Shown: positions 2,902 through 39,507 of the stretch, one piece after another
How positions within the stretch are numbered: the stretch's first letter is position 1
Layout: every line of letters begins with the position of its first letter
From: Bacilli bacterium
GTDB lineage: Bacteria; Bacillota_I; Bacilli_A; RF39; UBA660
Length of the DNA: 39,507 bases
Assembly (NCBI GenBank): GCA_036658935.1
Contig: JAVXDN010000002.1
Coordinates: 1-39,507, forward strand
Reading direction: 5' to 3'
Translations under genes and position numbers: made by a program
Notes under the pieces: model-generated
The model's input: the letters and a program-made list of their open reading frames with translations, nothing else
The model's database searches: none
Told to the model about the DNA's origin: nothing

Positions 2902-3880
2902 TAGTTACAAGCTTATCAAAACTAACATCCTTATCTAAAGCATTATTGTATTTCATAATTTCTTTTAAAGTATTAAAAGCATCCTCTTCAACATAAGTAT
3001 TATCCCACCAAGAGTCATTATCCTTATATCTTTTTACTATTAAAGTTAAATCTTCTTTACTAATAGAAGGAAACTCAGCCTTAATAACTTCGCTGATTTT
3101 TTGTGCACTATTATTTTTAACAAAAGCTAACCCTCTATTTATAGCTTTAACAAATTTTCTTAAAACATCTTTATTATCATTAATATAACTTTTTCTTGAA
3201 AAGAAAGTAGTATAAGGAACCTCTCCAGACATTCTACCAATACTAGATAATACACATCCATACTTTTCTTTTTCTAAAGTTAGAGCAGTAGGTTCAAATA
3301 AATTAACATATTCTCCTTCTCCTGAAATAAACGCTCCACTTAGAGAAGCAAAATCCACACTAGAATTAATATTTACATCTTTTGGATTAATACCATTTTT
3401 ATATAAACCATAAGTAAAAACCATTAAAGGCATACCACCAACTCTACCAGCTAAAACATTCTTAGAAATTAAATTTTTCACATCAAAATTATCTTTCTCA
3501 TTACAACTTCCAACTAAGAATTGTCCATCTCTTTTTGTAAGAGAAGCAAAAGTTTTAACATAATCTTTTTCACCATTATTATAAACATAGAAACTAGCCT
3601 CAGCTCCAGCTAAACCAATATCAACATCTTTACTTAACACAGCAGCAGTAGTCTTATCCGCTCCAGAAGTTAAAATAATTTCAATATCAATACCCTCATC
3701 TAAAAAATATCCATTTTCTTTCGCAACATACCAAGGACTATAAAAAACAGAATGAGTTACTTCAGCAACACTAATTTTAATATTATTACTTTTATTATTT
3801 TCCCTAACTTTAATAATACCAATAATCAATAATGAAAATATAATAATACTAAATAAAAACACAATAATTTTATTCTTCAT
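2882..3880 (-). CDS. ABC transporter substrate-binding protein (NMT1/THI5-like, NitT/TauT family)
   Basis: N-terminal membrane anchor, then a periplasmic-binding fold typical of NMT1/ThiY-like SBPs (SPWYVAKENGYF, GADKTTAAVLSKDVDIGLAG). It is first in the operon and overlaps the ATPase start. Confidence 0.75.
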   Translation of the reverse strand: MKNKIIVFLFSIIIFSLLIIGIIKVRENNKSNNIKISVAEVTHSVFYSPWYVAKENGYFLDEGIDIEIILTSGADKTTAAVLSKDVDIGLAGAEASFYVYNNGEKDYVKTFASLTKRDGQFLVGSCNEKDNFDVKNLISKNVLAGRVGGMPLMVFTYGLYKNGINPKDVNINSSVDFASLSGAFISGEGEYVNLFEPTALTLEKEKYGCVLSSIGRMSGEVPYTTFFSRKSYINDNKDVLRKFVKAINRGLAFVKNNSAQKISEVIKAEFPSISKEDLTLIVKRYKDNDSWWDNTYVEEDAFNTLKEIMKYNNALDKDVSFDKLVTNEFNEK

Positions 3881-15867: not shown

Positions 15868-15898
15868 AAAAGAATAAAGTTTTAAACTTTATTCTTTT
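15868..15898. terminator. Bidirectional terminator between convergent genes
   Basis: 14-bp inverted repeat aaaagaataaagtt / aactttattctttt flanked by A- and T-runs. Overlaps the 3' end of the LCP gene. Confidence 0.6.
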
Positions 15899-17914: not shown

Positions 17915-17942
17915 AAAAGTGGGTAATACTACTCACTTTTAT
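17915..17942 (-). terminator. Terminator of the cohesin-protein gene (minus strand)
   Basis: Minus-strand reading: gtgagta-gtat-tacccac stem (one mismatch), followed by TTTTTC. Confidence 0.5.
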
Positions 17943-19306: not shown

Positions 19307-19326
19307 ACTTTTAATTCACTCCTTTT

Positions 19327-21664: not shown

Positions 21665-22738
21665 ATGAATTTAACAGTATTTGGTCATAATATATTTTTA
21701 GTAATAATAACTTGTTTTGCTGCTTCAATTGCTTTTGTCCTTTTAAGTATAAAAATATCAGTATATATAGGTGCACTAGATGTACCCGATGAAAGAAAAA
21801 TACATAAAACACCAATACCTACTCTTGGAGGGATTGGAATATTCTTAAGCTTTTTACTTGGATTTATGTTATTTTGCCCAAGGAATGATCTAATGTTTTC
21901 TATACTTATAGCATCTTTTCTAGTATTACTTTTAGGAATAATAGATGATATTCATCCAGTGCCAGCTAAAATAAAATTTTTAATTCATATATTAATATCT
22001 GGCATAGTAGTGTTTTATGGAGGACTAGAACTTGATTATATAACAATATTTGGAATGTATATAAACTTTGGCTTCTTCGCTCCTTTTATATCAATGTTAA
22101 TAATAGTATCAATTATAAATGCAATGAACTTAATAGATGGCTTAGATGGCTTATGTGCGGGAATATCTTCAATATACTTTTTTACAATCGCAGTTATTGC
22201 AATAGTATTAAACCGTTTAGGAGGCTTAGATATAATATTATCTTTAATTATGTTAGGCTCAACATGGGGATTTTTAATGTATAACTTCCCACCAGCTAAA
22301 GTATTTATGGGTGATACAGGATCTACATTCTTAGGACTAATGATAAGTGTAATAACATTATTAGGATTTAAAACAGTAACATTAACTTCTCTTGTAATAC
22401 CACTTTTAGTTCTAGCTATTCCAATATTAGATACATTATTTGCGATAATTAGAAGAAAATTAAAAGGAGAAAGTATAGGTAAACCAGATAAAGAACATAT
22501 ACATCATCAAATACTAAAAAAGACTTCATCTAAAAGAAAAACATTATTAATAATATATGCTGTAGATATAATATTTTCAATAACCTCGATATTTTATGCT
22601 TTAGGACACACAAAAGAAATGATTGTATGTTATGTATTACTTCTATTTGTCTTAATATTCTTAATATTAAAAACAGATATAATATTCGATAACAGTGGAA
22701 AAAGAAAAAGAAAAGAAGAGAAAAAGGTAAATAAATAA
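21665..22738 (+). CDS. tagO: Undecaprenyl-phosphate GlcNAc-1-phosphate transferase (MraY/WecA/TagO family)
   Basis: Polytopic GT4-family protein with motifs DVPDERKIHK, IIDDIHP, NAMNLIDGLDGL, FMGDTGS. Its size matches TagO. Confidence 0.8.
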   Translation: MNLTVFGHNIFLVIITCFAASIAFVLLSIKISVYIGALDVPDERKIHKTPIPTLGGIGIFLSFLLGFMLFCPRNDLMFSILIASFLVLLLGIIDDIHPVPAKIKFLIHILISGIVVFYGGLELDYITIFGMYINFGFFAPFISMLIIVSIINAMNLIDGLDGLCAGISSIYFFTIAVIAIVLNRLGGLDIILSLIMLGSTWGFLMYNFPPAKVFMGDTGSTFLGLMISVITLLGFKTVTLTSLVIPLLVLAIPILDTLFAIIRRKLKGESIGKPDKEHIHHQILKKTSSKRKTLLIIYAVDIIFSITSIFYALGHTKEMIVCYVLLLFVLIFLILKTDIIFDNSGKRKRKEEKKVNK

Positions 22739-27800: not shown

Positions 27801-28230
27801 TGCAATGTCTATACCAAATGTATATGTTGCATCAATTTGTGAAGGTGCATCAATGCAACAGACTATAACTGCATTTAAAGAAGCAACTGAACATATTGGA
27901 CCTTCTATAATAATTGCATACTCTCCTTGTATAGCACATGGAATAAAAGGTGGATTAGTAAATACATTAAAAGAAGAGAAACTATTAGTATCTTCAGGAT
28001 ATAATATACTAATGCGTTATAATCCAGAAAATGATAAACTAACAATAGATAGTAAAGAACCTGACTTTTCATTATATGAAGAAGTATTTAATAAAGAATT
28101 AAGATATAAAAACTTATCTATAATAAATGAAAATAATTATAAAGAATTATATAATCAAAACTTAGATCAAGCTAAGAAAAGATATTCATTTTATAAAGAT
28201 TATTCATTAAAAACCGAAGGTGAAATATGA
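24811..28230 (+). CDS. nifJ: Pyruvate:ferredoxin (flavodoxin) oxidoreductase, single-polypeptide form
   Basis: N-terminus MDGNEACARGAYLFSEICGIYPITPASPMA, two 4Fe-4S motifs (CIECNQCSFVCPHG, CTGCGLCVDTCIG), TPP-binding GGDGWAYDIGYGGLDHV...LDTEVYSNTGGQ. Confidence 0.95.
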   Translation: MKNYKVMDGNEACARGAYLFSEICGIYPITPASPMATLCDKWSNQDKRNIFNSRVNVVEMQSEAGASALIHGALQSGSLSTTFTSSQGLLLMIPSMYKMAGELLPAVIHVAARSLSTHALSIFGDHQDVYATRSTGFAILSSSNVQDAYNLGIVSHLSAISGQVPFLHFFDGFRTSHEINKINILDDKIVSSLLDIPSLNKFKNRAINIGNNVTRGMSQTEDIYFQNTESRNKYYNDLPNIVESYMNKINVLSGSNYKPFVYYGALSPTKIIIAMGSVTDTIASVVDELNKNKEEVGLIIVYLYRPFSVEHLLKVLPNSVESIAVLDRTKEAGSNGEPLYLDIVEALNNKNIKVYGGRYGLSSKNVTPSSIKSVFDNLSLPEPLNHFTIGINDDVTHLSLETSLIKINHDYKELKIYGFGSDGMVGASKNILKLIGSKEETFIQGYFEYDSKKSSGITVSHLRIGPTPINAPYYCEDLSLIVISKDLYLQRYNCLEGIKENAILLINSNKTDIELNDLMNDETKKTIKQKHIQVFITSSQSLADKYHLNGKINNIMSSYILKFLGSKKEDLISFENMIKETYIKKGEEIVNNNINAFKEADEYLRELDTSILDFEEIDTIEDNDVMSRMMKRTSSSLPVSAFLPHTDGTFKGGSSALEKRKTSDHTPHWIKENCIECNQCSFVCPHGVIRPFSLDEKELLDSGLTKNDTIDSLGEKNKQFYLSVSSSNCTGCGLCVDTCIGKNNKKALSLEKYNEKDDILCDKLSLIGTNNTIFNKFTVKGLGFEKPKFEFPGACAGCGETPYLKALTSLYGENIVIANATGCSSIYSSSLPSTPYSIPWISSLFEDNAEFGLGILTSYETTRRRIEEIIYDTKDNVTPEIKSLYKEWLDNKEDYKITSKVKEELLKLDIPNPLKELSEYIVSRNVWTIGGDGWAYDIGYGGLDHVLRSNKNVKILVLDTEVYSNTGGQTSKATRTSAIAEFSSNGKLNPKKDLFRSAMSIPNVYVASICEGASMQQTITAFKEATEHIGPSIIIAYSPCIAHGIKGGLVNTLKEEKLLVSSGYNILMRYNPENDKLTIDSKEPDFSLYEEVFNKELRYKNLSIINENNYKELYNQNLDQAKKRYSFYKDYSLKTEGEI

Positions 28231-28628
28231 AATATAATATAAGTAAAATAATAATATTACTAATACTAATATTTTCTATCTTTTCATTATTAAAATATGT
28301 TGAAGATTTTAAAATAAATAAATATATTTCAGATGATCAATCATATTTAGTATTAAAAAGTGATAAAACTTTCAAATATCATATAAACGTCTGTGAAGGA
28401 TATTTAACCCTTAAAGGGAAATACCAAGATAAAGATAACTTAATTACTTTAACTAATTTTAATACTAAAAAACATGAAGGATATTCTATAAATAAAGCAT
28501 CAAATATATATTTTACAAAAAAGGATAATAAAACTCTTGAATTTACTGGATATGATAGTATCTATGCATCATCATGTGTTAATGAAAATAAATTATTTAT
28601 ACTAGAAACAACAAAAAACATCGACTAA
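28227..28628 (+). CDS. Small N-terminally anchored protein, unknown function, coupled to PFOR (ATGA overlap)
   Basis: The ATG overlaps the PFOR stop. One N-terminal TM. Confidence 0.55.
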   Translation: MKYNISKIIILLILIFSIFSLLKYVEDFKINKYISDDQSYLVLKSDKTFKYHINVCEGYLTLKGKYQDKDNLITLTNFNTKKHEGYSINKASNIYFTKKDNKTLEFTGYDSIYASSCVNENKLFILETTKNID

Positions 28629-28843: not shown

Positions 28844-28852
28844 TGGTATAAT
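28844..28852 (+). promoter_or_regulatory. Extended -10 promoter (TGgTATAAT) for the first gene of the pilus-associated locus
   Basis: TGGTATAAT at 28844-28852, RBS gggag, ATG at 28875. Confidence 0.55.
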
Positions 28853-28874: not shown

Positions 28875-29525
28875 ATGAAAAAAATTATATTTATATTATT
28901 ATTATCTTTTTTTCCCTTACTTTTACATGCAAAATGTGGATATGAAGAACAAAATAAATTAAATACTTTAGCGTCCTATGTAGAATATGACTACATACAA
29001 AACAAAGATAATACTTTTAATATAACACTTACTAATATAGTACCATTCCTAGAAGTAGAATATAATAATAACATAATCTCTTCAACAAATAATCAAGTTG
29101 TAATACATAACTTAAAAGAAGGTCAAAACTTGAATTTTAAAATCTTATCTTCATCATCCTCTCCATGTCTAAATTCATTCTTAAGGTCAATTAACATAAC
29201 ACTACCATATATTAACGATTACTATAACACAGAATTATGTTTAGGTTATGAGAAACTACAAGTATGTTCCTCAGCTCTTCTAAATTACAAAGTAACATAT
29301 GATATATTTGTCTCAGCTAAAGAAAAATATGATGAACAAAATAAAGAAGAAGAGGAAATAATTACTAAACCAACTGAAACAAAAAAACAAAAAGAAAATA
29401 TATTTTCTCCAATTATTAAATTTATAAAAATGAACTATATAAAAATAATATTAGTAGCAATTACATCTATAATTTCTTATTCTATATTTAATAGAATATA
29501 TTCAAAAAAAAGATATGGTATATAG
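28875..29525 (+). CDS. Type-I membrane protein (signal peptide, Cys-containing ectodomain, C-terminal TM anchor); paralog A
   Basis: Start trimmed to the ATG at 28875, because the promoter lies inside the ORF-track extension. Signal peptide MKKIIFILLLSFFPLLLHA|KC, C-terminal TM IILVAITSIISYSIF and basic tail. Shares the motif C-x4-LR[ST]I-x15-C-x8-C with ORF 29574-30215. Confidence 0.65.
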   Translation: MKKIIFILLLSFFPLLLHAKCGYEEQNKLNTLASYVEYDYIQNKDNTFNITLTNIVPFLEVEYNNNIISSTNNQVVIHNLKEGQNLNFKILSSSSSPCLNSFLRSINITLPYINDYYNTELCLGYEKLQVCSSALLNYKVTYDIFVSAKEKYDEQNKEEEEIITKPTETKKQKENIFSPIIKFIKMNYIKIILVAITSIISYSIFNRIYSKKRYGI

Positions 29526-29539
29526 AAAACCATAAATTA

Positions 29540-29548
29540 TGCTATAAT
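29540..29548 (+). promoter_or_regulatory. Extended -10 promoter (TGcTATAAT)
   Basis: TGCTATAAT at 29540-29548, RBS agaggtgg, ATG at 29574. Confidence 0.45.
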
Positions 29549-29573
29549 GTATATACAATAAAGAGGTGGAAAA

Positions 29574-30215
29574 ATGAAGAAAACATTAATATTAATAATT
29601 TCTATATTGCTTGTATTCCCTACATTAATAAATGCAGAATGTAGTAATGAAACATTAATTGAATATTCTAAAAGTATACAAACAACAATCATTAATACAT
29701 CATATCCAAATACAATAGAATTACATATCAGTGGAATAAATGATTATATATATATAAAAGTAAAAAATAATTTAGAAACAGAAGAAAAAATATATACATC
29801 AAAAGATAAAAATGAATATGGATTTATTGTCTTGTCATCTCCTAATATAAATAAACAACTCATTTACGAAGTCTTAATATACAGTAAAGACACAGGATGT
29901 GGAGAAAAACCACTAAGAACTATAAAGACTAAAACAGAAAAATATAATAAATACTCTTCATACGCAGTATGCAAAGAAGCTAAAGATTTTAAATATTGCC
30001 TAGAATATTATGATACAGATAATTTAAGTGAGAATGAATTTTTAATAGAAGTAAATAAATATATAGAATCATCAAATAAAACTATGTTTGATAAAGTTTT
30101 AGAAGTTATATTAAAATATGGAATCTATGTATTAGTTCCTATTATAGTAGTTGGAGGGTTTTTTATAATTAAAACAATTATATATAAAAAGAAGGTGAAG
30201 CATGAAACAAAATAA
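29574..30215 (+). CDS. Type-I membrane protein; paralog B of ORF 28875-29525
   Basis: Signal peptide ...FPTLINA|EC, C-terminal TM VLVPIIVVGGFFII and basic tail, with the same four-Cys spacing as paralog A. Confidence 0.65.
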   Translation: MKKTLILIISILLVFPTLINAECSNETLIEYSKSIQTTIINTSYPNTIELHISGINDYIYIKVKNNLETEEKIYTSKDKNEYGFIVLSSPNINKQLIYEVLIYSKDTGCGEKPLRTIKTKTEKYNKYSSYAVCKEAKDFKYCLEYYDTDNLSENEFLIEVNKYIESSNKTMFDKVLEVILKYGIYVLVPIIVVGGFFIIKTIIYKKKVKHETK

Positions 30216-33200
30216 TAAAAATAATAAAGTATTAATAATAGTAACATTATTATGTTTATTTATCCCATTCTCTAAGTTAAATGCATCCCCTGAACATATA
30301 ACATTAGTTTTTAGAAATGGGCCAGCTTCTTCTAGCTCATTTAGATACTTACATAGTAACGTTAATATTGGTGGAAAAAGTGAAATAAAGGAAGTTGAAA
30401 GTGTTAAAGCTTGTAAAGATAAAAGAGGTATAGTAGAAACTTTTAATTATGAAGTAGGTTATGCTACTTGTGCACCAGATGAAAAAAAGACAGTAGGCTA
30501 TACATGTGGTTCTCCTATTGGGGTTTATTATCGTTTAGATGCAGCCCCATGTAAAAATGCACAAATGACTTGTAATAAAAATAATATACAAACTAATTTT
30601 AAAGCAGATAAAGTAATATCAAAAACAACTATCAAGACAAAAACGCCTACAGAAAATCCTCCATCAGTAAATCATACTTTAAAAAGTGTGAATTGTTCTA
30701 TTACATCATCCGGAAGAATAGAAACAAGAGAAATAACTGGATATATGTATAAAGTAAAAGGTACAAGCGATGAAACATACTGTATAGATCCAGGCTTAGA
30801 TTTCGAAGCTAATAGTAACTATACAATAGATAATACTTTTCATCTACCAAACTCTACTAATAAAGAAAAACAATTTTATAATGGATTAGTAACTATAATT
30901 CAAGCAGGAAAAGAAAGGGGGTACTCTCCAGATGCAATAGAAACAGCATTAAGACTTTGGACAGGCGCTATGTCTATTGAAGGCGGAGCAGATGGATACT
31001 GGAATGCAGAAGATCAATGGAGTACATCAACATCAGTATTTTCTGTAACCTCTTCACTTATTGTAAAAGACTTATATACTGAATATGTATCTAATATTAA
31101 AACAAATAAAGACTTCGCTCCTGGAGTAATGTTTTCATTAAATGATACCAATGATGCATGGGGAAAAGCAGTATGGCTTTTTTATGATGTATATAAAGGA
31201 AGAATAAAACAATGGAGTCCAAGTATTAAAACAAAATCTTCAACTTACAGAATATCAGATAATCATAAAACTACTATCACAATAGAAACAAACCTTAACA
31301 ATGAAACTACAATAGACGGAATAACATCATCTGATACGAGATTTTCTCCTGAAATAGTAAAAAAATATCAATGTGGGAATAAATATTGTTATGATGTATT
31401 GGTAAGTTCTACAAATATTAATTTAAAGGAAACATCATCTTATCCAGTGTCTTTTGAATTTTCCTATACAGACACAAGAAATCCTGAAAATAGAATAAAT
31501 ATGTATAATCCTGATAAAGGTAAAAAGTATCAGAAAATGATGCTATATGAGAGTGTTCCATCTAAATCAAAAATATCCCTTTCAGTAGTATTCACTACAC
31601 AAGAAATAACAAATCCTATATGTGAAGGTGAAATAAAATCTGATATAAGTACCAGTTGTAATGATAAAACTACTTCAAGTATTATAGACCCATCAATGGA
31701 CAACATTATTGACCCAAATTGCCAAAGAAACAATTATGTATTTAAGAGTAAAACATCTGGATATTTTAAAGTATATTGTAGAGAAGAATCATATTTTAAT
31801 TTTCTTGATAAAGTTGATGTCAACTCAGGAAAATATTTCAAATATAATACCAAAACTTTCTTAGATAAAAAAAATAACATAAATACCACATCATCAATTA
31901 AACAAGTAAGAGAATGTAGCGTAAAAATTGATTATAACGGTTGGAAAAATGAATATGATAGTATAAATAAAAAAGTACTAGATGATTATAATGAATATCA
32001 AAAATATTTATCATTACAAAATGCTAATTACACAACTTCTATAGGACATGATTCAGATTCATCTAGAGGATGTGCTAATTGTTGTAATTGCCACGAATGT
32101 GGGACTAAAGAAAAACCAAAAACATGCTGTTCATCTGGAAAAGGAGGAAAAGCAAGTACTTCATGGACAAGCTATAAATGGAATTCAACATATACATATA
32201 CTAATCCAAATGGAAGCACAGTAACTAAAACCGCAGAATTAAGTTCTCCTGGAAGTGGTAGTGTAACATGTGATCCATGTAGTGGATGTAGGGTAAGTTC
32301 TTATAATGGAAACCCTAATAAAAATGCAAATATAAGTGTGCCATATTATAATACATATAAAGAATCAGTTAATAAAAGAGATAAACTTTTAGAAGATATG
32401 GAATATTATTCAATGTATGATAAAAACATTGTTTCATCTCCTAGCACATCTATTACATTAAATAAAGCTACTAGTTTATATAAATATCTACTAGATCCTT
32501 CTACATACACAGATCCTACATTAACTCTTGAGTATAAAGATACTGAATATCGTCACCCTGAAATTGCAAGTAAAAAAGAATACTCAGAACCTAAAACATC
32601 GTATTGTGTAGGGTGTAGTAGTACTAAATCATTAAATCCAACTATAGGTACAAATAATATTAACTATTATAATTGTAGTAATAACTCTTGCAGTAAAACA
32701 ACTGCAGAAGTACCAAATAGTACATTAAATAACATAAATATAACAAGAGAAGTACAATTTTATAATAACGATGAATATTACACTAATATATTAACTGGAG
32801 GATATACTACAACTCCAGGAGAAAATAAATTAAGACTTGAAAATTATGCATATCCTGTACATCTTAATACTAAAAGTGGTGAGTATGAAGTTTCATTAAC
32901 ATATAAAAACTTAAATAACACAAAGAAATTTATTGAAAGAAAAAAGGATATACTATTTGATAATATTACTTCAAAATTTGATAATACATATTATTGTACA
33001 TATAATGCTACAAATAAAATACCTTTTTGGAGTGAAAAAGAAGTATATGGAATAGTCTTTAGACCGGTTGATCTTACAAACTTATTCCCAGGTGGAAGAG
33101 AAATTGGAGAAAACTGGGCAAAAGAATTAGATATAATTAAATATATACAAAAATTAGGAAATAACATATGGACTAATTCAAAATCAACTCCACAATACAC

Positions 33201-33405
33201 AGTTATACTAACACCAAAAGAAATACAAAATATCAAGTGGTATAATCAAAATAAAAATTATTTATCTTCTGAAACTCTTAAATGTGATGGAGCAACTTGT
33301 ATAAGCACCATGCTTAAAAATCATGATTACGTATTTAATTACAATAAATTAAATGTTTCAACTGATCCATATGGAAATAGTTACAGATTTAAGGGAGGTA
33401 ATTAA
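30202..33405 (+). CDS. Large (1067 aa) secreted Cys-rich protein of unknown family; candidate pilus-associated adhesin or tip factor
   Basis: Signal peptide (VLIIVTLLCLFIPFSKLNA|S). No C-terminal TM or LPXTG motif seen. Dense Cys clusters GCANCCNCHECG...TCC (32071-32130) and TCDPCSGC (32269-32289). Overlaps the upstream gene by 14 nt and ends 3 nt before the next gene. Confidence 0.6.
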   Translation: MKQNNKNNKVLIIVTLLCLFIPFSKLNASPEHITLVFRNGPASSSSFRYLHSNVNIGGKSEIKEVESVKACKDKRGIVETFNYEVGYATCAPDEKKTVGYTCGSPIGVYYRLDAAPCKNAQMTCNKNNIQTNFKADKVISKTTIKTKTPTENPPSVNHTLKSVNCSITSSGRIETREITGYMYKVKGTSDETYCIDPGLDFEANSNYTIDNTFHLPNSTNKEKQFYNGLVTIIQAGKERGYSPDAIETALRLWTGAMSIEGGADGYWNAEDQWSTSTSVFSVTSSLIVKDLYTEYVSNIKTNKDFAPGVMFSLNDTNDAWGKAVWLFYDVYKGRIKQWSPSIKTKSSTYRISDNHKTTITIETNLNNETTIDGITSSDTRFSPEIVKKYQCGNKYCYDVLVSSTNINLKETSSYPVSFEFSYTDTRNPENRINMYNPDKGKKYQKMMLYESVPSKSKISLSVVFTTQEITNPICEGEIKSDISTSCNDKTTSSIIDPSMDNIIDPNCQRNNYVFKSKTSGYFKVYCREESYFNFLDKVDVNSGKYFKYNTKTFLDKKNNINTTSSIKQVRECSVKIDYNGWKNEYDSINKKVLDDYNEYQKYLSLQNANYTTSIGHDSDSSRGCANCCNCHECGTKEKPKTCCSSGKGGKASTSWTSYKWNSTYTYTNPNGSTVTKTAELSSPGSGSVTCDPCSGCRVSSYNGNPNKNANISVPYYNTYKESVNKRDKLLEDMEYYSMYDKNIVSSPSTSITLNKATSLYKYLLDPSTYTDPTLTLEYKDTEYRHPEIASKKEYSEPKTSYCVGCSSTKSLNPTIGTNNINYYNCSNNSCSKTTAEVPNSTLNNINITREVQFYNNDEYYTNILTGGYTTTPGENKLRLENYAYPVHLNTKSGEYEVSLTYKNLNNTKKFIERKKDILFDNITSKFDNTYYCTYNATNKIPFWSEKEVYGIVFRPVDLTNLFPGGREIGENWAKELDIIKYIQKLGNNIWTNSKSTPQYTVILTPKEIQNIKWYNQNKNYLSSETLKCDGATCISTMLKNHDYVFNYNKLNVSTDPYGNSYRFKGGN

Positions 33406-33408
33406 CAT

Positions 33409-33822
33409 ATGAAAGAAAGCTTATGGGGATATTTAGTTTTAATACTTGGAATTATGATATTAGTAGTTATGATATTAGTAAGAGATATAACTTCTACTAC
33501 AGAAAATGATTATTATTTAACAAAAGAAGCTATGAATGCCGCAATGGTAGATTCTCTAGATTATGGAACATACATGCAAAGTGGGGAAATAAGAATAATA
33601 TCAGATAAATTTGTAGAAAACTTCACTAGACGTTTCGCTCAAAGTGTTTCTTCTTCAAAAACATATAAAATAGAATTCTATGAAATATATGAAACACCAC
33701 CTAAAGCAACTATAAGAATAACTACATCTACAAAGAAATACACAGTAACAACAAATGATAATGAAGGTGTAGGATTTGATATAGTTACTCTTCTAAGTGG
33801 AGTACTAGAAACTAAATATTAA
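33409..33822 (+). CDS. Small N-terminally anchored protein; candidate minor pilin (TadE/TadG-like)
   Basis: N-terminus MKESLWG-YLVLILGIMILVVMILV: a short polar leader ending in Gly, then a hydrophobic helix. It parallels ORF 37945-38436 (MKESIGG-TWLLGLVVLFIVLF). Confidence 0.45.
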   Translation: MKESLWGYLVLILGIMILVVMILVRDITSTTENDYYLTKEAMNAAMVDSLDYGTYMQSGEIRIISDKFVENFTRRFAQSVSSSKTYKIEFYEIYETPPKATIRITTSTKKYTVTTNDNEGVGFDIVTLLSGVLETKY

Positions 33823-33824
33823 AC

Positions 33825-33877
33825 ACAAAAGACTTCCTATTATCTTTATTGATTTTAGGAGCTTTTTGTTTTATAAT
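33825..33877 (+). promoter_or_regulatory. Imperfect hairpin with T-tract, then TATAAT; possible partial terminator plus internal promoter ahead of the cpaB-like gene
   Basis: acaaaagacttcct (33825-33838) pairs imperfectly with aggagctttttgt (33857-33869). TATAAT at 33872-33877. RBS agggag before the ATG at 33910. Confidence 0.3.
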
Positions 33878-33909
33878 TAATACATAATAAAAAGGGAGAA
33901 ATTAAAAAT

Positions 33910-34719
33910 ATGAAAAATTTAAAAGCAACATTAAAAAGATTCTTTACAAATAAAAATACAGTAACTATTCTTTGTGTAATAGGAGCAGTATTAGTACTAT
34001 TTTTTGGATATAATTGGAGAATTAAACAAGTAACTACACCAGTAAGAGTTCCTTATGCATTAAAAAACATTCAACCTAGAACTGTAATAACAGAAGATAT
34101 GATAGGTTATGTAGAAATACCACAAAGCATGTTAACACCAAATACTGCTAGAACAGTTTCAGAAGTGTTAAATAAATATGCTAGTTTTAATACTGTAATA
34201 CCTAAAGGAAGTTTATTTTATAAAAGTGCAATAATGACTTGGGAACAAATGCCAGATTCAGCTTGGGCAGATATACCTGATGGATACACAGTTGTATCTC
34301 TTCCAGTAACAACAGAAACAACTTATGGAAATTCAATATTTCCAGGAAACTATATAGACCTTTATTTTCAATCATACGATGAAACAGGAAAACTTATATT
34401 CGGAAAATTCATAGAAAGTATTGATGTATTAGCAGTTAAAGATAGTAGTGGAAAACATGTATTTGAAAATAGTGATACATTAGGTACTCCCTCATCATTA
34501 ATATTTGCAGTTCCTGAATCTCTTCATTTATTATTAAGAAAAGCATCTTATATGTCTGGAGAGATAATACCAGTACCTAGAAATGCAAGCTATTCACAAA
34601 ATCCATCCGCTACTATTGTAAGTAGTGAATACTTAAAGAACTTTATATTATCACAAACAGTAGTAATACCCGATGAAAAATTACCTTCACTTGATGAAAA
34701 CATTAAACCAAAAGAATAA
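33910..34719 (+). CDS. cpaB: Flp/Tad pilus assembly protein CpaB/RcpC-like (SAF plus RcpC domains)
   Basis: N-terminal TM. SAF-like PVRVPYALKNIQPRTVITEDMIGYVEIPQSML...VIPKGSLF. RcpC-like IPDGYTVVSLPVTTETTYGNSIFPGNYIDLYF. Confidence 0.75.
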   Translation: MKNLKATLKRFFTNKNTVTILCVIGAVLVLFFGYNWRIKQVTTPVRVPYALKNIQPRTVITEDMIGYVEIPQSMLTPNTARTVSEVLNKYASFNTVIPKGSLFYKSAIMTWEQMPDSAWADIPDGYTVVSLPVTTETTYGNSIFPGNYIDLYFQSYDETGKLIFGKFIESIDVLAVKDSSGKHVFENSDTLGTPSSLIFAVPESLHLLLRKASYMSGEIIPVPRNASYSQNPSATIVSSEYLKNFILSQTVVIPDEKLPSLDENIKPKE

Positions 34720-34741
34720 AATATAAAAAGGAGATAAAATT

Positions 34742-35863
34742 ATGAATGATACAATATTTGAACAAATAGATTTTGGACCTTTAATCCCTTTGTTACAAGA
34801 AGATGATTATACAGATATCTCCTATTCAAATGGTGGAGGATTATTTGTAAAAAGTCTTACAAAAGGTGTGTTTAAAATAGAAAATAATCCATTAATAAAT
34901 AATGCATTAATGGAGAAAATAGCATTTCAATGTTCAAACGTAATGGGTAAAACATTTAACATGGCTCATCCTTTCCTTGATGCAGAAAATGCAGAACTTC
35001 GTTTAAACTTTGTACATGAATCAATCGCTACAAATGGTATAGCGGTATTAATTCGTAAAACTCCAGCTAAGATAAGATTGAATAAAGATAAATTATTAAA
35101 AGAAAACTATGTATCTCTACAACTTCATGATTTTTTATTTAAATGCATAGAAGGACACTGTAATGTAATAGTAAGTGGAGAAACTGGTAGTGGAAAAACA
35201 GAACTAGTTAAATATCTAGCTGCACATACTGGAGAAAATGAAAAATTAATTACAATAGAAGATACTCTAGAACTACACTTAGATAAGATATTTCCAAATA
35301 GAGATATAGTCGCAATGAAAACAAATAATATAGCATCTTATACTGAAATATTAGTAACTTGTATGAGACAAAACCCTAAATGGATATTACTTTCTGAAGT
35401 ACGTTCAGCTGAAGCAGTAACTGCAGTTAGAAACTCTATATCTTCAGGACACAATATAATTTCAACTATCCACTCAGATAAAGCTTCCTCAATCCCAATG
35501 CGTATGTATTCACTTCTAGAAACAAACCTAGATGCTGAACAATTCTTAAAGAGTATTCACAGATATATACACTTAGGAGTTCATGTAAAAGGATATATGT
35601 CAAAAAAATACAATCGTTTTCAAAGAGAAATAGTAGAAGTATGTGAATTCTATGTTGATGAAAATAACGAAGCTAAAACTAATACATTATACAGTAAAAC
35701 AATGGATGGTAAAGAAATATATCATAATCCAACTAAATACTTACTTGATTATTTATCAGCTGGAGGAATAGACATTCCAAAAGAAACATTTGTAAATGAT
35801 GAAGGAATATTAAAAACATCAAATGAAGAAACAAAACAAGAAGAAATAATAGAAATACTTTAA
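34742..35863 (+). CDS. tadA: Tad/type IV filament secretion ATPase (CpaF/TadA, T2SSE/VirB11 superfamily)
   Basis: Walker A GETGSGKTE (35177-35200), Asp box ITIEDTLEL, Walker B ILLSEVRSAEA, His box GHNIISTIHS. N-terminal YTDISYSNGGGLFV. At 373 aa it is short for CpaF. Confidence 0.88.
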   Translation: MNDTIFEQIDFGPLIPLLQEDDYTDISYSNGGGLFVKSLTKGVFKIENNPLINNALMEKIAFQCSNVMGKTFNMAHPFLDAENAELRLNFVHESIATNGIAVLIRKTPAKIRLNKDKLLKENYVSLQLHDFLFKCIEGHCNVIVSGETGSGKTELVKYLAAHTGENEKLITIEDTLELHLDKIFPNRDIVAMKTNNIASYTEILVTCMRQNPKWILLSEVRSAEAVTAVRNSISSGHNIISTIHSDKASSIPMRMYSLLETNLDAEQFLKSIHRYIHLGVHVKGYMSKKYNRFQREIVEVCEFYVDENNEAKTNTLYSKTMDGKEIYHNPTKYLLDYLSAGGIDIPKETFVNDEGILKTSNEETKQEEIIEIL

Positions 35864-35888
35864 AAAAATATGATAGGAGGTGCTAATT

Positions 35889-36791
35889 ATGTATATACTA
35901 GAAATACTTATAATATCATTTCTAATTCTTTTTATGATTTTATATCGTAAAAATGATGGAGAAAAGTTTTATAAATTCTTTTCAAATACAATAATGAACA
36001 CCTATAATAAATATGCTCCATATTCATATAAAGAAGTAAAAGAAAAAGTAAAACAATTAGGTGGAAACTTTACATTAAAACAATATATAATTCAAATAAT
36101 AGTATTAGGAGGCTTCTTTGGAGTAGTTGGATACTTATACTTTTATAGTTTAATATATGCTCTTATCTATGCAGGATTAGCTATTGCATTTATTCCATAT
36201 CTTGCTTACTTAAGAAGCTATAAAATATATAGTGAATACGTATTTGAACAAATACAAGTATATACTACTAACGTAATAATGGAATTCAATACTACTCAAA
36301 GCTTTGTAAAAGCTTTAGAAGGAGTAGCAGAGAGTGGAGTACTAGAAGACCCTGTATTATCTGATGTAAAAGAAATGATAAGACTTTCATATAACAATGG
36401 AAATATAGAAGATCCAATAAACTATATGAACTCAAAATATGACTACTACATAGTTAAAAATATGCATCAATTATTCCTTCAAATAACACAAGAAGGTGCA
36501 AAAGACGCAGGAGAATCTCTTGAGAATATGTTACAAGATATAGATATGTTAGTAGAAGGAGTATATAGAGATAGAATGGATAGAGATGGATTTCATAAGA
36601 AATTCATTACATTTGGTTTTGCTCTTTTTGCCCTTATAATATTAATACAATATTTACTAGGAAGAGCTTCATATATGGAACTTGTACAATTATGGTATGT
36701 CCAAATAATACTTCATGGAGTAATACTAATAAATACTGGATTCTTACTAAGTGGAGAAAAATATTATAATCAAGAAGTAGGTGCTGAATAA
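35889..36791 (+). CDS. tadB: TadB-like platform protein (T2SSF domain)
   Basis: Start set at the ATG at 35889, 8 nt after AGGAGG; the ORF-track GTG at 35880 abuts the RBS. Has an N-terminal TM, a TM pair, a soluble helical T2SSF-like domain and C-terminal TMs. Sits directly downstream of tadA. Confidence 0.7.
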   Translation: MYILEILIISFLILFMILYRKNDGEKFYKFFSNTIMNTYNKYAPYSYKEVKEKVKQLGGNFTLKQYIIQIIVLGGFFGVVGYLYFYSLIYALIYAGLAIAFIPYLAYLRSYKIYSEYVFEQIQVYTTNVIMEFNTTQSFVKALEGVAESGVLEDPVLSDVKEMIRLSYNNGNIEDPINYMNSKYDYYIVKNMHQLFLQITQEGAKDAGESLENMLQDIDMLVEGVYRDRMDRDGFHKKFITFGFALFALIILIQYLLGRASYMELVQLWYVQIILHGVILINTGFLLSGEKYYNQEVGAE

Positions 36792-37573
36792 TGGAAATAC
36801 TAATAGTAGGAATATTAATAATTATAGCACTCATAGTAAATGGAAGAATAGATACAAAAAAGTTTATAAAAGATAATGAATTAGCGGTTAATATATTAAA
36901 AGAATCTGATTATGACTTTTTAGTAAGAGCAAAATATGGAGATAAAGTAACTCCAGAAGAAATGTTTAGAAAAAGAGTAAAAAACTCCCTTTTAATATTT
37001 ATAATAATGTTATTTATTTTAATCGCACAAATAAACTTCTTAAATATAGTTCTTTGTGTAATAGTAACAGTAGTAATGTTCAAATCATATTATTTAACAC
37101 TTAAATCATATTATAAAAAACATCTTCATGAGATAGATCTCTTACTTCCTTATTACTTAAAATCTTTAGAAATATTAATGCAACATTATACAGTACCAGT
37201 AGCATTAGGAAAATCTATAAAAGATGCTCCCGCTATATTTAAAGATGGATTAGATATATTAATAAGTAAAATAAATGCAGGAGATGGTTCAATAGATCCA
37301 TATATGGAATTCGCTATTTCTTATCCAGTAAGAGATTCAATGAGAATGATGAGATTACTTTATAGATTAGGTATGGGAAATCAAGAAAGAAAAGATGAAC
37401 AATTAATGACTTTCTCTAGAACTATTTCATCTCTACAAAATAAAAGTAGAGAAACTAAATATAAAGAAAGATTAAATAAAATGGAAAGTAAAACAATGTT
37501 AATGCTATCAGTAACTGGTATTGGAGTATTATTACTTCTTATGTTGACAATAATAAGAATGTTTAATGTATAA
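36791..37573 (+). CDS. tadC: TadC-like platform protein (T2SSF domain)
   Basis: TAATG overlap with tadB and the same topology class as tadB. T2SSF-like soluble region LLPYYLKSLEILMQHYTVPVALGKSI. Confidence 0.7.
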   Translation: MEILIVGILIIIALIVNGRIDTKKFIKDNELAVNILKESDYDFLVRAKYGDKVTPEEMFRKRVKNSLLIFIIMLFILIAQINFLNIVLCVIVTVVMFKSYYLTLKSYYKKHLHEIDLLLPYYLKSLEILMQHYTVPVALGKSIKDAPAIFKDGLDILISKINAGDGSIDPYMEFAISYPVRDSMRMMRLLYRLGMGNQERKDEQLMTFSRTISSLQNKSRETKYKERLNKMESKTMLMLSVTGIGVLLLLMLTIIRMFNV

Positions 37574-37586
37574 CTTAAACACATTA

Positions 37587-37615
37587 TTGATTAATATGAA
37601 AAAATTAAGTATAAT
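37587..37615 (+). promoter_or_regulatory. Near-consensus sigma-A promoter dedicated to the pilin gene
   Basis: TTGATT (37587-37592), 17-bp spacer, TATAAT (37610-37615). Strong RBS aggaggg, ATG at 37648. Confidence 0.65.
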
Positions 37616-37647
37616 GAAATATATAAAGTAGAGGAGGGTGATAATAA

Positions 37648-37923
37648 ATGAAAGGTGCAACAGAGGAACTAAATATGACAGTAATTGCAGTAGTTGCAGT
37701 CGCTGCAGTCGCAGCGTTATTCTATGCATTCGTATGGCCAATGATTCAAAGAAGTATAGCAGATAATACATGTCAAACTTACGGAGAAGGATTCCATGCA
37801 GTAAAGAACACTGCAACTGGTGGTGGAGATGCAGGAACAGGAGCAAGCAAAACAAGCAAATGGGTATGTTGTCCAAAAGGAGTAACATCTGCCTCAGATT
37901 CATCTTGTGTAGCCGCTGACTAA
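37648..37923 (+). CDS. Candidate major pilin (Flp/type IV-like, atypically long and Cys-containing)
   Basis: MKG|ATEELNMTVIAVVAVAAVAALFYAFVWPMI: a short basic leader ending in Gly, acidic residues just after it, then a ~22-residue hydrophobic helix. The C-terminal part is Gly/Ser/Thr-rich with 4 Cys (C42, C74, C75, C87). Its position after tadC is as in Tad loci. Confidence 0.6.
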   Translation: MKGATEELNMTVIAVVAVAAVAALFYAFVWPMIQRSIADNTCQTYGEGFHAVKNTATGGGDAGTGASKTSKWVCCPKGVTSASDSSCVAAD

Positions 37924-37944
37924 AGAAAAAGGAAGTATTATAAA

Positions 37945-38436
37945 TTGAAAGAATCAATAGGTGGAACTTGGTTATTAGGCTTAGTGGTACTATTTATAGT
38001 ACTTTTTTCTGCTTTCTTAGCAATCTCAATAAATTATACAAAAGCATTTAAAGTAAAAAATCAAATAATAAATATAATAGAACAAAATGAAGGATACTCT
38101 AATAGTAGTAAAAGAAACTTATCAAGTGTAAGTGATTCAGAACTTAGAAGTAGTAAAAATACAGAAGATAAAGTATATTTATATATAAGAAGTATAGGTT
38201 ATGCATCTGAAAGTATAAGTCAAAATAAATGTAATGGTATTGGAGATAAAGAAGAAGGTGGATACTGTATACAAAGAATATGTACAGAGAATGGTAGTTA
38301 CTATAAAGTAACATCATTTGTTAAAATAGAACTTCCACTTATGTGGCAATCATTCACTGTACCTATAAGTGGAGAAACAAAAGCTATATACAAAGATAAT
38401 AGTAATTTATCAGGTCCATCTCATAGAGGATGTTAA
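37945..38436 (+). CDS. Small N-terminally anchored protein; candidate minor pilin (TadE-like)
   Basis: TTG start. The encoded MKESIGG leader matches MKESLWG of ORF 33409-33822. Hydrophobic helix, then a soluble domain with 4 Cys. Confidence 0.45.
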   Translation: MKESIGGTWLLGLVVLFIVLFSAFLAISINYTKAFKVKNQIINIIEQNEGYSNSSKRNLSSVSDSELRSSKNTEDKVYLYIRSIGYASESISQNKCNGIGDKEEGGYCIQRICTENGSYYKVTSFVKIELPLMWQSFTVPISGETKAIYKDNSNLSGPSHRGC

Positions 38437-38446
38437 GGAGTAAAAT

Positions 38447-39469
38447 ATGAATGTAATAATTGCAAATAAATATAAAGAAATGTTAATGACTCTAGATATT
38501 GAAGTAATGAAATCAATGGAAGGAGTATTTGACTCAAACTTAATAGTAGAAACATTTAAAAACTTTTATTATGAAAGAATGATACTCGATATTACCGCTA
38601 TTAAAGATTATAAAAATATAAGTACATTACAAAACTTATCTATAAACTTAGATGCTTCTAAGATTATATTAGTATTGGATGATTCTCCTGAAAGTGAATC
38701 TTCTATATATTTATCATCATTAATATCTATGGGATTTTATAACTTTACTAGAAATATAGAAGGAATAAAATATTTGATTGAACATCCAAACTCATACAGA
38801 GATGTCGCTCATATACATAAACTTGGATTAGAAGAACAAACATCTCTTCCAAACAACCTTAATAATAATATAGAAGATTCTATTAGTTCAAGAGTACGAA
38901 TAATAGGAATAAAAGACTTAACAGAACATTCAGGATCTACAACACTATCATATTTACTAAATAAACACTTAATGAAAAAATATACTTCATGTGCTGTAGA
39001 AGTCAATAAAGAAGACTTTGTATACTTTGAAGATAAAAGCTTAATAAGTACAACATCTAATGATCTAGCTGCCTGCTTAATGAAAAACAATACATTAGAT
39101 GCAATCATTATAGACTTAAATGATTATAAAGATGAATCTATTTGTAATGAAATTATATATTTAATTGAACCATCAATATTAAAATTAAATAAATTAGTAA
39201 AAAGAAATAGAAGAGTATTTGAAAATATAGAAAACAGACGCTTAGTATTAAATATGTCTTTACTTAATGATACAGACATAAAAGAATTTGAAAAAGAAAT
39301 AAACAACGAATTATACTTTGTCTTACCACCATTAAATGATAGAGATGAAGATAATATTGATATAGATAATTTATTAGTTAAATTAGGTTTTATTAAATTA
39401 GGAACTAATATTACTACAGATAAAAAAGAAAATACAAAAAATAAATTATTTGGATTATTTAAATTCTAA
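38447..39469 (+). CDS. TadZ/CpaE-like protein: receiver-like N-domain plus MinD/ParA-like domain with a degenerate P-loop
   Basis: N-terminal alternating beta/alpha pattern (NVIIAN, MILDIT, KIILVLDD). The second domain has RIIGIKDLTEHSGSTTLSYLL where MinD/CpaE proteins have KGGxGK[ST]T, and DAIIIDLN as a Walker-B-like strand. Confidence 0.5.
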   Translation: MNVIIANKYKEMLMTLDIEVMKSMEGVFDSNLIVETFKNFYYERMILDITAIKDYKNISTLQNLSINLDASKIILVLDDSPESESSIYLSSLISMGFYNFTRNIEGIKYLIEHPNSYRDVAHIHKLGLEEQTSLPNNLNNNIEDSISSRVRIIGIKDLTEHSGSTTLSYLLNKHLMKKYTSCAVEVNKEDFVYFEDKSLISTTSNDLAACLMKNNTLDAIIIDLNDYKDESICNEIIYLIEPSILKLNKLVKRNRRVFENIENRRLVLNMSLLNDTDIKEFEKEINNELYFVLPPLNDRDEDNIDIDNLLVKLGFIKLGTNITTDKKENTKNKLFGLFKF

Positions 39470-39477
39470 AAAACTGG

Positions 39478-39507
39478 TTGACTTACCCTTATTATAAATT
39501 ATATAAT
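39478..39507 (+). promoter_or_regulatory. Sigma-A-like promoter for a gene beyond the window
   Basis: TTGACT (39478-39483), 18-bp spacer, TATAAT (39502-39507, at the window edge). Confidence 0.4.

Follow-up and report, generated by a model that had tools for sequence, protein, structure and literature searches.

A divergent Tad-like gene module in a Bacilli chromosome that may serve a monoderm type IV secretion system

The window analysed here, 39,507 nt of contig JAVXDN010000002.1 from a Bacilli bacterium (assembly GCA_036658935.1), closes with a block of eleven genes, g01 to g11, several of which resemble the assembly machinery of Tad pili. An earlier note, made from the letters alone, had read the block as a non-canonical Tad pilus locus. 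The eleven open reading frames (ORFs) were co-directional on the forward strand from 28875 to 39469, where that note had placed them (Table 1), and the short gaps and overlaps it described were found as intergenic distances of 48, -14, 3, 87, 22, 16, -1, 74, 21 and 10 nt from g01 to g11. A ribosome-binding site of the GGAG/AGGAG type preceded all eleven genes. At the junction of g07 and g08 (GAATAATGGAA) the two frames shared 1 nt in a TAATG overlap, and the start of g07 is more likely the ATG at 35889, which gives 300 aa as in database entry P0121. The contig ended so soon after g11 that the locus was truncated, not complete at eleven genes. Most likely, judging by the sequences of related loci, the eleven genes form the front part of a longer chromosomal operon.

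Table 1. Features of the locus and cell-envelope genes of the window (positions within the 39,507-nt window)
Feature	Position	Strand	Description
Candidate extended -10 promoter element, TGGTATAAT	28844-28852	+	lies 22 nt 5' of g01; weak evidence, as a pattern match at 25% GC
g01	28875-29525	+	216 aa; extracytoplasmic 4-Cys domain between a signal-peptide-like N-terminus and a C-terminal membrane anchor
g02	29574-30215	+	213 aa; architecture as g01
g03	30202-33405	+	1067 aa, secreted, 32 Cys; candidate thioester-domain (TED) adhesin, putative counterpart of pLS20 Tie
g04	33409-33822	+	137 aa DUF5411 protein with N-terminal transmembrane (TM) helix; candidate minor pilin/pseudopilin, putative counterpart of pLS20 gene 36
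g05	33910-34719	+	269 aa CpaB/RcpC-like bitopic protein; TM segment 12-38, SAF domain, beta-clip domain
g06	34742-35863	+	373 aa secretion ATPase of the TadA/CpaF-VirB11-FlaI group; proposed motor of the module
g07	35880-36791	+	300-303 aa polytopic membrane protein; probable TadB-like platform subunit
g08	36791-37573	+	260 aa polytopic membrane protein; probable TadC-like platform subunit
g09	37648-37923	+	91 aa; short N-terminus, TM helix, small C-terminal domain, 4 Cys; candidate major filament subunit
g10	37945-38436	+	163 aa, TTG start, N-terminal TM helix, 4 Cys; candidate minor pilin, weakly DUF4320-like
g11	38447-39469	+	340 aa cytoplasmic two-domain protein, receiver-like and degenerate ParA/MinD-like; TadZ-like by fold
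Contig end	39470-39507	+	38 nt past g11; no terminator
LtaS-type sulfatase	13223-15244		window gene
LCP protein	15889-17832	-	window gene
GT4/TagO-like transferase	21665-22738		window gene

The ATPase g06 was the most readily recognized member of the module. All four stretches that the earlier note had quoted (GETGSGKTE, ITIEDTLEL, ILLSEVRSAEA and GHNIISTIHS) were found in its translation, with Walker A, Asp box, Walker B and His box present, and it matched Pfam T2SSE at 3e-24. Among solved structures it scored best against CpaF (74.5 bits), followed by archaeal GspE2 (63.7), FlaI (59.4) and VirB11 (48.8), in agreement with the TadA/CpaF assignment of the note. Its NCBIfam matches (VirB11, "TadA family conjugal transfer-associated", TrbB and FlaI) all lay far below cut-off, the best-scoring model being VirB11 TIGR02788 at 102.6 bits. 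The annotated proteins closest to g06 were not ATPases of Tad loci but the "CpaF/VirB11 family" ATPases of Firmicutes conjugative plasmids (pLS20 family, Listeria pLGUG1, pXO2-type), at 120-182 bits; on plasmids, canonical CpaF reached 86-101 bits at 84-90% coverage, whereas VirB11 reached 74-84 bits at 32-63%. These comparisons suggested that g06 belongs to the TadA/CpaF family.

Pfam and NCBIfam scans of the eleven proteins, a check that the earlier note had proposed, gave names only to g04, g05 (below threshold) and g06 and returned nothing for g07, g08 or g11. For g05, the matches to RcpC (9e-6), SAF (9e-4) and TIGR03177 CpaB (2.3e-7) agreed with the CpaB-like SAF/RcpC protein described in the note, with every score below its curated cut-off. 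We also searched targeted family hidden Markov models (HMMs) against 51 reference proteins drawn from a Priestia locus, two Bacillus plasmids and two canonical Tad loci. The g05 family profile recovered the Priestia SAF protein at 2e-42, the CpaB-like protein of the Alkaliphilus Tad locus at 1.7e-8 and Microvirga CpaB at 7e-5, so that g05 appears to supply the CpaB/RcpC component of a Tad system.

The same targeted searches bore on the two membrane proteins that follow the ATPase directly and whose place, size and topology fit TadB and TadC. The g07 family HMM matched the Priestia "T2SS F family" protein (3e-14), the gene 38 product of the pLS20 family (4e-6) and Alkaliphilus TadB (1.5e-5), and the g08 family HMM matched the second Priestia membrane protein (1.6e-17), the pLS20-family gene 39 product (1e-5) and Alkaliphilus TadC (8.9e-5). 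The Priestia "T2SS F family" protein itself matched Pfam T2SSF at 3.4e-5. Because the profile matches were position-specific, we accepted g07 and g08 as a probable, though not proven, TadB/TadC-like platform. The earlier note had called the pair T2SSF-like; the overlap between the genes stood, while the T2SSF family itself was recovered by neither Pfam, NCBIfam nor PDB searches, and the likeness to TadB and TadC came through the targeted profiles.

The last gene, g11, was placed by structure prediction. Its AlphaFold2 model (predicted local distance difference test, pLDDT, 82.9) comprised a receiver-like and a ParA/MinD-like domain, and Foldseek matched it to an ATPase of the HypB type, to ParA (3ea0, 3cwq), to FlhG and, over both domains, to the Eubacterium rectale protein 3fkq (E 1e-3, probability 0.96), which we take to be a TadZ structure. 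The Walker A position read G-[SA]-T-T, without the lysine. No sequence-level family was found for g11, whose HMM matched neither the ParA-like protein of the Priestia locus nor that of the Alkaliphilus locus. At the level of the modelled fold, g11 would thus be the TadZ/CpaE member, placed last in the locus and not before the ATPase, as the earlier note had proposed; in relatives it always followed g10. Taken together, homology of g05, g06, g07/g08 and g11 to the Tad machinery was supported, mostly by remote evidence, and the core was very divergent.

Three further genes encode candidate filament subunits, all sharing an M-K/R-E-[A/S] start followed by a TM helix. The g04 product matched Pfam DUF5411 at 4.3e-51 and its MKES... 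start was conserved. The gene 36 product of the pLS20 family matched DUF5411 at 6.3e-5 and aligned with g04 in hhalign at 82% probability (E 1e-5). The hydrophobic segment of g09 covered residues 6-34. An exhaustive search of 1.84 billion proteins returned a small g09 family of 165 clusters, nearly all aligning from residue 1, with a nearly invariant N-terminus, M-K-E-A-T-G-E-L-N-M-T-V (MKEATGELNMTV), in which G6 was present in 137 and E7 in 140 of 145 clusters. The g09 of the window itself (37648-37690) starts with MKGATEELNMTV, in which Gly and Glu have exchanged places between positions 3 and 6; about 5% of clusters were without G6. A conserved N-terminus, M-[RK]-E-[SA]-I-G-G, was also found for g10, which was duplicated in many relatives and showed weak similarity to DUF4320-type proteins of Bacillus plasmids (1.3e-3 and 6e-3; hhalign 38%; compare pLS20 gene 40).

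Upstream of these, the earlier note had reported three genes for secreted or membrane proteins of no nameable family. This held for g01 and g02, which matched no Pfam or NCBIfam family, were paralogous to each other (hhalign E 2e-51) and sat upstream of g03 in relatives; the hydrophobic segments of g01 covered residues 1-23 and 183-206. It did not hold for g03, a candidate member of the TED adhesin family by its sequence features. The motif TYCIDPG at about residue 193 of g03 matched VFCIDPG of pLS20-family Tie, and [YF]C[ILVM][DN]P was conserved in the relatives' proteins at the g03 position, of which 8/18 matched Pfam TED and 2/18 TED_2 (best 1.6e-5). An annotated thioester-domain protein occupied the g03 position on Listeria pLGUG1. 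The g01-g03 proteins of the window showed no evident LPXTG-type signal.

Just upstream of the locus, several relatives carried a large sortase gene of 509-547 aa (L001 1-458; L172 1-178), which in L172 was co-directional and directly adjoined g01. Several close relatives (L001-L003, L007, L009, L011 and L015; for example L001 678-2432, reverse strand) had a divergent gene for a 584 aa HerA/FtsK-like P-loop ATPase (DUF87) just upstream of g01. The window lacks this gene and has in its place a 133 aa ORF and the gene for pyruvate:ferredoxin oxidoreductase (PFOR).

The synteny comparison that the note had asked for showed the same arrangement in dozens of related genomes. When the eleven proteins were searched by tblastn against 85 related loci, the order was fixed as g01/g02, g03, g04, g05 (1-2 copies), g06, g07, g08, g09 (1-2 copies), g10 (1-2 copies) and g11. 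This order was far beyond chance, and the locus is a real and ancient gene cluster of its lineage. An ATPase 70-83% identical to g06 occurred in thousands of metagenomic proteins, and a scan of one genome per species found at least 571 species genomes with an ATPase of 69-81% identity. The carriers were labelled uncultured Bacilli, "Tenericutes", "Mollicutes", Clostridium sp. CAG:628/CAG:609, Firmicutes CAG:582 and Candidatus Onthocola, a lineage which we take to be the GTDB order RF39 (NCBI label: Bacilli incertae sedis). Genomes of this lineage appear reduced. Divergence differed gene by gene, from 69-81% identity for the ATPase to 37-57% for g11. Portions of the system recurred beside PFOR, LtaS/LCP and RmuC genes in distant relatives, which, with a GC content of about 25% that was uniform across the window, indicated vertical chromosomal inheritance and not a mobile element.

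Two departures from the common arrangement were also seen among the related loci. A variant locus (L004 13259-19335; L005 6076-12152) had a 475 aa ATPase and two g05-like genes, then six tandem paralogues of about 340 aa, which matched no Pfam family and were not similar to g09-g11 by BLAST. In L094, a Na+/Ca2+ exchanger gene (2540-3493) was inserted between g08 and g09 within an otherwise conserved operon.

What follows g11 in the relatives came to light through a search for A24 prepilin peptidases (TadV/CpaA), run in phmmer from an annotated A24 peptidase and from a Priestia protein taken as A24-like, both small and polytopic. Its weak top matches belonged to a family, g12, and led us to genes of a type IV secretion system (T4SS). 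In every relative having g11, g12 stood directly after it, in 1-4 copies, as a gene for a protein of about 120 aa with two TM helices; 15/18 members matched Pfam T4SS_pilin. In the window, the final 30 nt of the contig, just past g11 (39478-39507), comprised TTGACT, an 18 nt spacer and TATAAT, a near-consensus promoter-like site with 11/12 matches. It might serve internally to transcribe the T4SS_pilin gene that is next in relatives, and such a match is not significant alone in AT-rich DNA.

In the clade nearest the window (L006, L092 and L094), T4SS genes continued on the same strand after g12. The next gene encoded a signal-peptide protein ending in a T4SS_pilin-type domain. This clade also had a gene for a polytopic VirB6-like protein of 650-674 aa (2.5e-7 against pLS20-family VirB6) and one for a TcpE/VirB3-like protein of about 103 aa (TcpE 1.4e-4, below threshold), then a gene for a protein of about 185 aa. 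A VirB4-like gene lay 5-6 kb downstream of g11 in these three loci and in L139 and L162 (AAA_10 3.5e-11; P-loop_TraG 7e-13; 4.4e-37 against pLS20-family VirB4). It was followed by wall hydrolases (SpoIID 7e-11, NlpC/P60 2.6e-20, VanY 1.4e-10) and by a protein of about 250 aa. A VirD4-type coupling protein, 28% identical to that of the pLS20 family and matching T4SS-DNA_transf at 1.7e-56 (L139), was encoded 3-8 kb further on, downstream of VirB4, in 33/41 loci with at least 7 kb of sequence; in the other 8 loci, L093-L096 among them, none lay within 10 kb. Two conserved proteins encoded near VirD4 had no PDB match, and after VirD4 came housekeeping genes, either RmuC or SpoVS and UvrA. By these matches, the relatives appear to have VirB6-like, VirB3/TcpE-like, hydrolase, T4SS_pilin-like and VirD4 components of a T4SS.

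The earlier designation as a Tad pilus locus therefore stood for the core, which was homologous to Tad machinery, and did not stand for a self-contained locus of eleven genes, since the T4SS_pilin-family g12 follows in relatives. The note had itself held that its call would fall if the ATPase and platform proteins belonged with a conjugative T4SS, and this came half true: the parts were of Tad type, and the system that hosts them was an operon of the conjugation type. The presence of T4SS genes past g12 in relatives, whether contiguous or at a second locus, indicated that the filament module most likely serves a monoderm T4SS channel. We therefore favour, with moderate confidence, a reading in which the window holds the Tad-like contact module of a hybrid machine, part Tad-like and part monoderm T4SS, that would serve cell-cell contact and transfer.

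Starting from the observed gene content, order, homologies and conservation, we propose how filament formation, adhesin chemistry, T4SS coupling and cargo might fit together in such a machine. As a hexameric TadA/CpaF-like ATPase, g06 would dock on the g07/g08 platform, with g11, a receiver joined to a dead ParA, positioning or scaffolding the motor. A conduit through the wall zone might be formed by g05; RcpC is reported to form a periplasmic conduit. The motor would extract membrane-anchored g09 as the major subunit and g10 and g04 as minor ones and stack them into a short pilus or pseudopilus. Acting with the filament, g03 could lock the cell covalently onto a partner surface, and g01 and g02 would be anchored accessory parts. 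The filament would make or stabilise cell-cell contact, after which the T4SS channel might move DNA or protein. Contact followed by transfer is also what genes 34-45 of the pLS20-family conjugation operons, their homologues, are presumed to provide.

Several results weigh against this reading. Support for all members came from sequences and models, and this includes pLS20 genes 36 and 38-45, which the literature lists as "unknown". The window stops before g12 and the T4SS genes, whose presence here was deduced from relatives with 79-83% identical ATPases, and in many genomes the module (g01-g12) and the T4SS genes lay at separate loci, indicating that their coupling is not obligatory at the DNA level. 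No tblastn match to pLS20-family Rel, Aux1 or Aux2 was found, a search of limited sensitivity for a relaxase. The platform call was weakened by blanks: 0/36 g07 homologues, scanned singly, matched Pfam T2SSF, the family profiles of g07, g08 and g11 searched against PDB sequences came back empty, the AlphaFold2 model of g07 (pLDDT 72) had no meaningful Foldseek match, and hhalign detected no similarity or paralogy between g07 and g08, so that the call depends on the weak matches of the targeted HMM searches. The g03 of the window itself had no Pfam TED match.

Further objections concerned the filament candidates. The Flp motif G/XXXXE[YF] did not occur in the g09 family, which was also negative against Flp in hhalign, and the g04, g09 and g10 families aligned with TadE at less than 1% probability, giving no TadE/TadF pseudopilin homology; among Flp, TadE and the small pLS20 proteins, hhalign found no pilin homology beyond that of g04 to gene 36. 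The earlier note had described its candidate pilin as long and Cys-bearing and two candidate minor pilins as lacking the usual TadE-type N-terminus; that the pilin candidates are non-canonical was supported. The A24 search described above found no peptidase among the window ORFs or within about 10 kb around the ATPase gene in the 85 loci. With pilin homology, the G/XXXXE[YF] site and a nearby A24 peptidase all not found, filament assembly was left unproven.

Relatives did carry canonical N_methyl (type IV pilin) proteins (L094 16628-18130; L004 6147-6557), so that a prepilin peptidase may exist elsewhere in the genome. One of these proteins, of 500 aa, was encoded just downstream of the T4SS genes. 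Such genes make it probable that a conventional prepilin peptidase and a Com-type system occur in the lineage as well.

The alternative that fared best was a free-standing, non-canonical Tad adhesion pilus for mucus, food particles or cells, in which the adjacency of T4SS genes would be historical and not functional. Every Tad-like core part is present for such a pilus, an adhesin-like g03 would suit it, and divergent Tad-like clusters that stand alone are known from other uncultured gut Firmicutes, those of the order TANB77. Many genomes, that of a very abundant species (L172) among them, had LtaS following a module that ended after g12, with the T4SS elsewhere. However, these split genomes kept a T4SS_pilin-family gene beside the module, and their separate T4SS locus opened with a gene carrying the same domain. 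The nearest annotated homologues of the ATPase, the DUF5411 protein, the platform pair and the adhesin all lay within conjugation operons, and the two modules were contiguous in the window's own clade. We consider a free-standing pilus unlikely on this balance.

In a second alternative there is no filament, g06 is a true VirB11-type energiser, g07, g08, g04, g09 and g10 are membrane and wall-spanning subunits of a Gram-positive T4SS channel, and the likeness to Tad reflects shared ancestry alone. The literature on pLS20 treats gene 37 as VirB11 and denies pili in Gram-positive conjugative elements, the best NCBIfam model for g06, although far below cut-off, was that of VirB11, and neither the pilin motif nor a prepilin peptidase was found in the regions searched. 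CpaF nevertheless outscored VirB11 among solved structures, both for g06 and for the pLS20-family ATPase (90 bits against 65), and the plasmid CpaF matches covered far more of g06. The size and layout of g09 are those of a small pilin. Known VirB11 proteins, to our knowledge, come without a TadB/TadC-like pair and without CpaB-like and TadZ-like proteins, whereas all of these are present here. An energiser of the VirB11 type is therefore improbable.

A role in DNA uptake, comparable to competence (cf. Flp in Micrococcus and ComB in Helicobacter), or a pseudopilus that exports g01-g03 like the piston of a type II secretion system (T2SS), seemed still more doubtful. The reduced look of the lineage genomes would accord with it, as would the three secreted-protein genes that appear to be co-transcribed upstream of the motor; Tad/Flp pili are reported to be necessary for DNA uptake in Liberibacter and an actinobacterium. 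The locus contained no DNA receptor or ComEC-type genes, however, the canonical N_methyl (Com-type) pilin genes elsewhere in relatives suggest a separate competence system, and VirD4 in most relatives points to substrate export. That the locus belongs to an active integrative conjugative element spreading horizontally through the lineage is very improbable: relatives do have a full set of mating-pair-formation genes with VirD4 and the closest annotated homologues are on conjugative plasmids, but neither the window nor the Pfam-scanned flanks of window and relatives showed genes for an integrase, a relaxase, replication or partition (a scan of limited sensitivity for relaxase and integrase domains), the relaxase/oriT and mobile-element location of a bona fide conjugative element did not appear, and the recurrent housekeeping flanks, the uniform base composition, the breadth of at least 571 species genomes and the gene-by-gene variation in divergence all speak for a resident system.

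Beyond the hybrid machine favoured above, a broader proposal may be put forward, which we regard as possible but doubtful. T4SSs of this family (on gut chromosomes, pLS20, pXO2-type and Listeria pLM80-type plasmids) might have a pilus of their own, with a Tad-type motor, "leaderless" subunits starting M-K-E... that would need no prepilin peptidase, and a thioester adhesin perhaps at the tip. The gut lineage would then have domesticated the hybrid as an order-wide organelle for contact and transfer, on which a reduced-genome bacterium may depend.

The remainder of the window was ordinary chromosome, with genes for an ABC transporter, PcrA/UvrD, LigA, a GGDEF protein and PFOR. The LtaS-type sulfatase, the LCP protein and the GT4/TagO-like transferase indicated that the host is a wall-bearing monoderm and no secretin gene was found in the window, both as the note had stated. 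A consensus promoter scan found promoter-like sites no commoner than in shuffled sequence, and the promoter/terminator scan found no terminator-like site 3' of g11 up to the contig end. Just before the locus, a 133 aa ORF with an N-terminal hydrophobic segment (28227-28628) overlapped the PFOR stop codon; it had no homologue among the 85 related loci. A 676 aa protein with a C-terminal GGDEF domain (10240-12270) implies cyclic di-GMP signalling, which controls pili and adhesion in many bacteria. Two adjoining surface-protein genes on the reverse strand (17939-21522) encoded, in one case, a cadherin-like domain and, in the other, SH3_3 and a type I dockerin; the sequence hints at cohesin-dockerin surface assemblies in this lineage. 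Family scans found no phage or defence genes in the locus, the sole phage-family matches being at chance level.

If the favoured reading holds, pLS20 genes 36 and 38-45 and their relatives on B. anthracis, Listeria, Enterococcus and Lactococcus plasmids could be reinterpreted as a Tad-like assembly module, which would be testable in the tractable Bacillus subtilis. We found no paper linking pLS20 to Tad/CpaF-type machinery, and none linking RF39 to a T4SS or a pilus. Hundreds of species of this uncultured lineage of human and animal guts have the module in their chromosomes, with very high ATPase identity; joined to a T4SS, it would be a concrete candidate for their interaction with other cells. 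Should g09-type subunits polymerise, the definition of type IV filament subunits would be widened to proteins with a near-invariant 12-residue N-terminus that have neither a canonical cleavage motif nor a peptidase encoded nearby. Filaments and adhesins on the surface of abundant commensals of the gut are also immunologically relevant, for which the TANB77 pilin-like protein is a precedent.

Among known systems, the locus is built from two kinds, and it fails as a canonical Tad system on the pilin, peptidase and pseudopilin. With Tad/Flp loci (Aggregatibacter tad, Caulobacter cpa, Bifidobacterium tad and the Alkaliphilus plasmid L089) it shared the CpaB-like protein, the ATPase and two polytopic, probable platform proteins, followed in the same order by a small pilin-sized protein and then by larger N-terminally anchored proteins, as well as the TadZ-like fold of g11. 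The secretin was absent, as expected for a monoderm. The canonical Alkaliphilus Tad locus has the Flp motif, TadE/TadF and an A24 peptidase, whereas the locus in the window has none of the three. Further differences were the last place of the TadZ-like gene, Tad-family scores that all fell below curated thresholds, and the added DUF5411 protein, TED-family adhesin, g01/g02 and T4SS_pilin gene, with a physical link to T4SS genes in relatives.

Closer in content were two sets of loci built around DUF5411. A Priestia koreensis plasmid locus (L087), which gave the strongest matches outside the lineage for g05, g06, g07 and g08, encoded in order an Ig-like surface protein, DUF5411, a SAF/CpaB-like protein, a ParA-like protein, the ATPase, the "T2SS F family" protein, a membrane protein and DUF4320. 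Miller et al. (2022; PMC9523054) predicted by computation a "secretion-related operon" of DUF5411, CpaF and PilC/GspF in the gut Clostridia Roseburia, Ruminococcus and Eubacterium. As in our locus, one operon here encodes DUF5411, a CpaF-type ATPase, a membrane protein (T2SSF-like in these loci and probably in ours) and a large surface protein. They differ in that a ParA-like gene precedes the ATPase, the surface proteins are internalin-like or Ig-like/SLH and not of thioester type, and no T4SS link was reported. Upstream in L087 (1461-1979) lay a gene for a 172 aa polytopic protein (…ITDVKELK…, …SPGDTKMF…) that may be a small A24-type prepilin peptidase, unconfirmed by family search.

In TANB77, an uncultured gut order of Clostridia, a divergent Tad-like cluster has been described whose CpaB, TadZ/CpaE, TadA and TadB/C are recognisable mainly by structure (PMC11680825). 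It is likewise a lineage-wide cluster of reduced-genome gut Firmicutes, with several unannotatable pilin-like proteins at its end; unlike the present locus, it has the canonical order with TadZ ahead of TadA, its TadB and TadC are fused as TadBC, its pilin-like genes number seven, it lacks a DUF5411 protein and no T4SS has been reported for it. The available part of PMC12102498 describes in Patescibacteria a chromosomal, MPF_FATA-related T4SS with arrays of VirB2-like pilins, usually without a relaxase, proposed to serve cell-cell interaction and not conjugation. The chromosomal T4SS of Patescibacteria is also reported to be essential for epibiotic growth. Common to both lineages would be a monoderm-type, chromosome-fixed T4SS in a reduced-genome lineage, with tandem T4SS_pilin/VirB2-like arrays. 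The Patescibacteria belong to another phylum, that part of PMC12102498 mentions no Tad-like ATPase/platform module, and the gut lineage usually keeps VirD4. The IncI1 plasmid R64, with its thin pilus, and PAPI-1 pair a T4SS with a type IV pilus for donor-recipient contact, chiefly in liquid (PMC12857230). The functional logic of a type IV filament encoded with a T4SS is shared, whereas these systems belong to diderms, make use of type IVb pili, possess both canonical prepilins and a prepilin peptidase, and have no gene-order homology with the locus.

The closest parallel was found in the conjugation operons of the pLS20 family. On the pLS20-family plasmid pBatNRS213 and on Listeria pLGUG1, the operon encodes a thioester adhesin, a DUF5411-like protein, the ATPase, two membrane proteins and DUF4320/small TM proteins, and after these VirD4, VirB6, a protein of about 103 aa, a protein of about 190 aa and VirB4. 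Related "CpaF/VirB11 family" ATPases were also noted on an Enterococcus faecalis plasmid and, in the Bacillus cereus group, on two sizes of B. anthracis plasmid, one of about 95 kb like pXO2 and the other of about 182 kb like pXO1, and the Tad-like module may therefore be widespread on medically relevant Gram-positive plasmids. The gut-lineage system differs in being chromosomal and vertically inherited, in adding the CpaB-like g05, the TadZ-like g11 and g01/g02, in its longer, Cys-bearing g09 and its arrays of the T4SS_pilin-family g12, and in carrying VirD4 at the end, whereas it stands before VirB6 on the plasmid; the relaxase, the Aux proteins and the Rap/Phr/Rco control genes of pLS20 were not found in it. 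As in the gut-lineage system, a hydrolase follows VirB4 in the pLS20 operon. Tie of pLS20 has a class II thioester domain and is required for efficient mating, particularly in liquid. The "VirB11-like" gene 37 ATPase was 31-33% identical to g06, and pairs in the same order were g03/Tie, g04/gene 36, g06/gene 37, g07/gene 38, g08/gene 39 and, weakly, g10/gene 40. By sequence comparison, the genes of the locus are thus collinear with genes 34-45 of the pLS20 family, and the whole arrangement, as completed from relatives, parallels genes 34-54.

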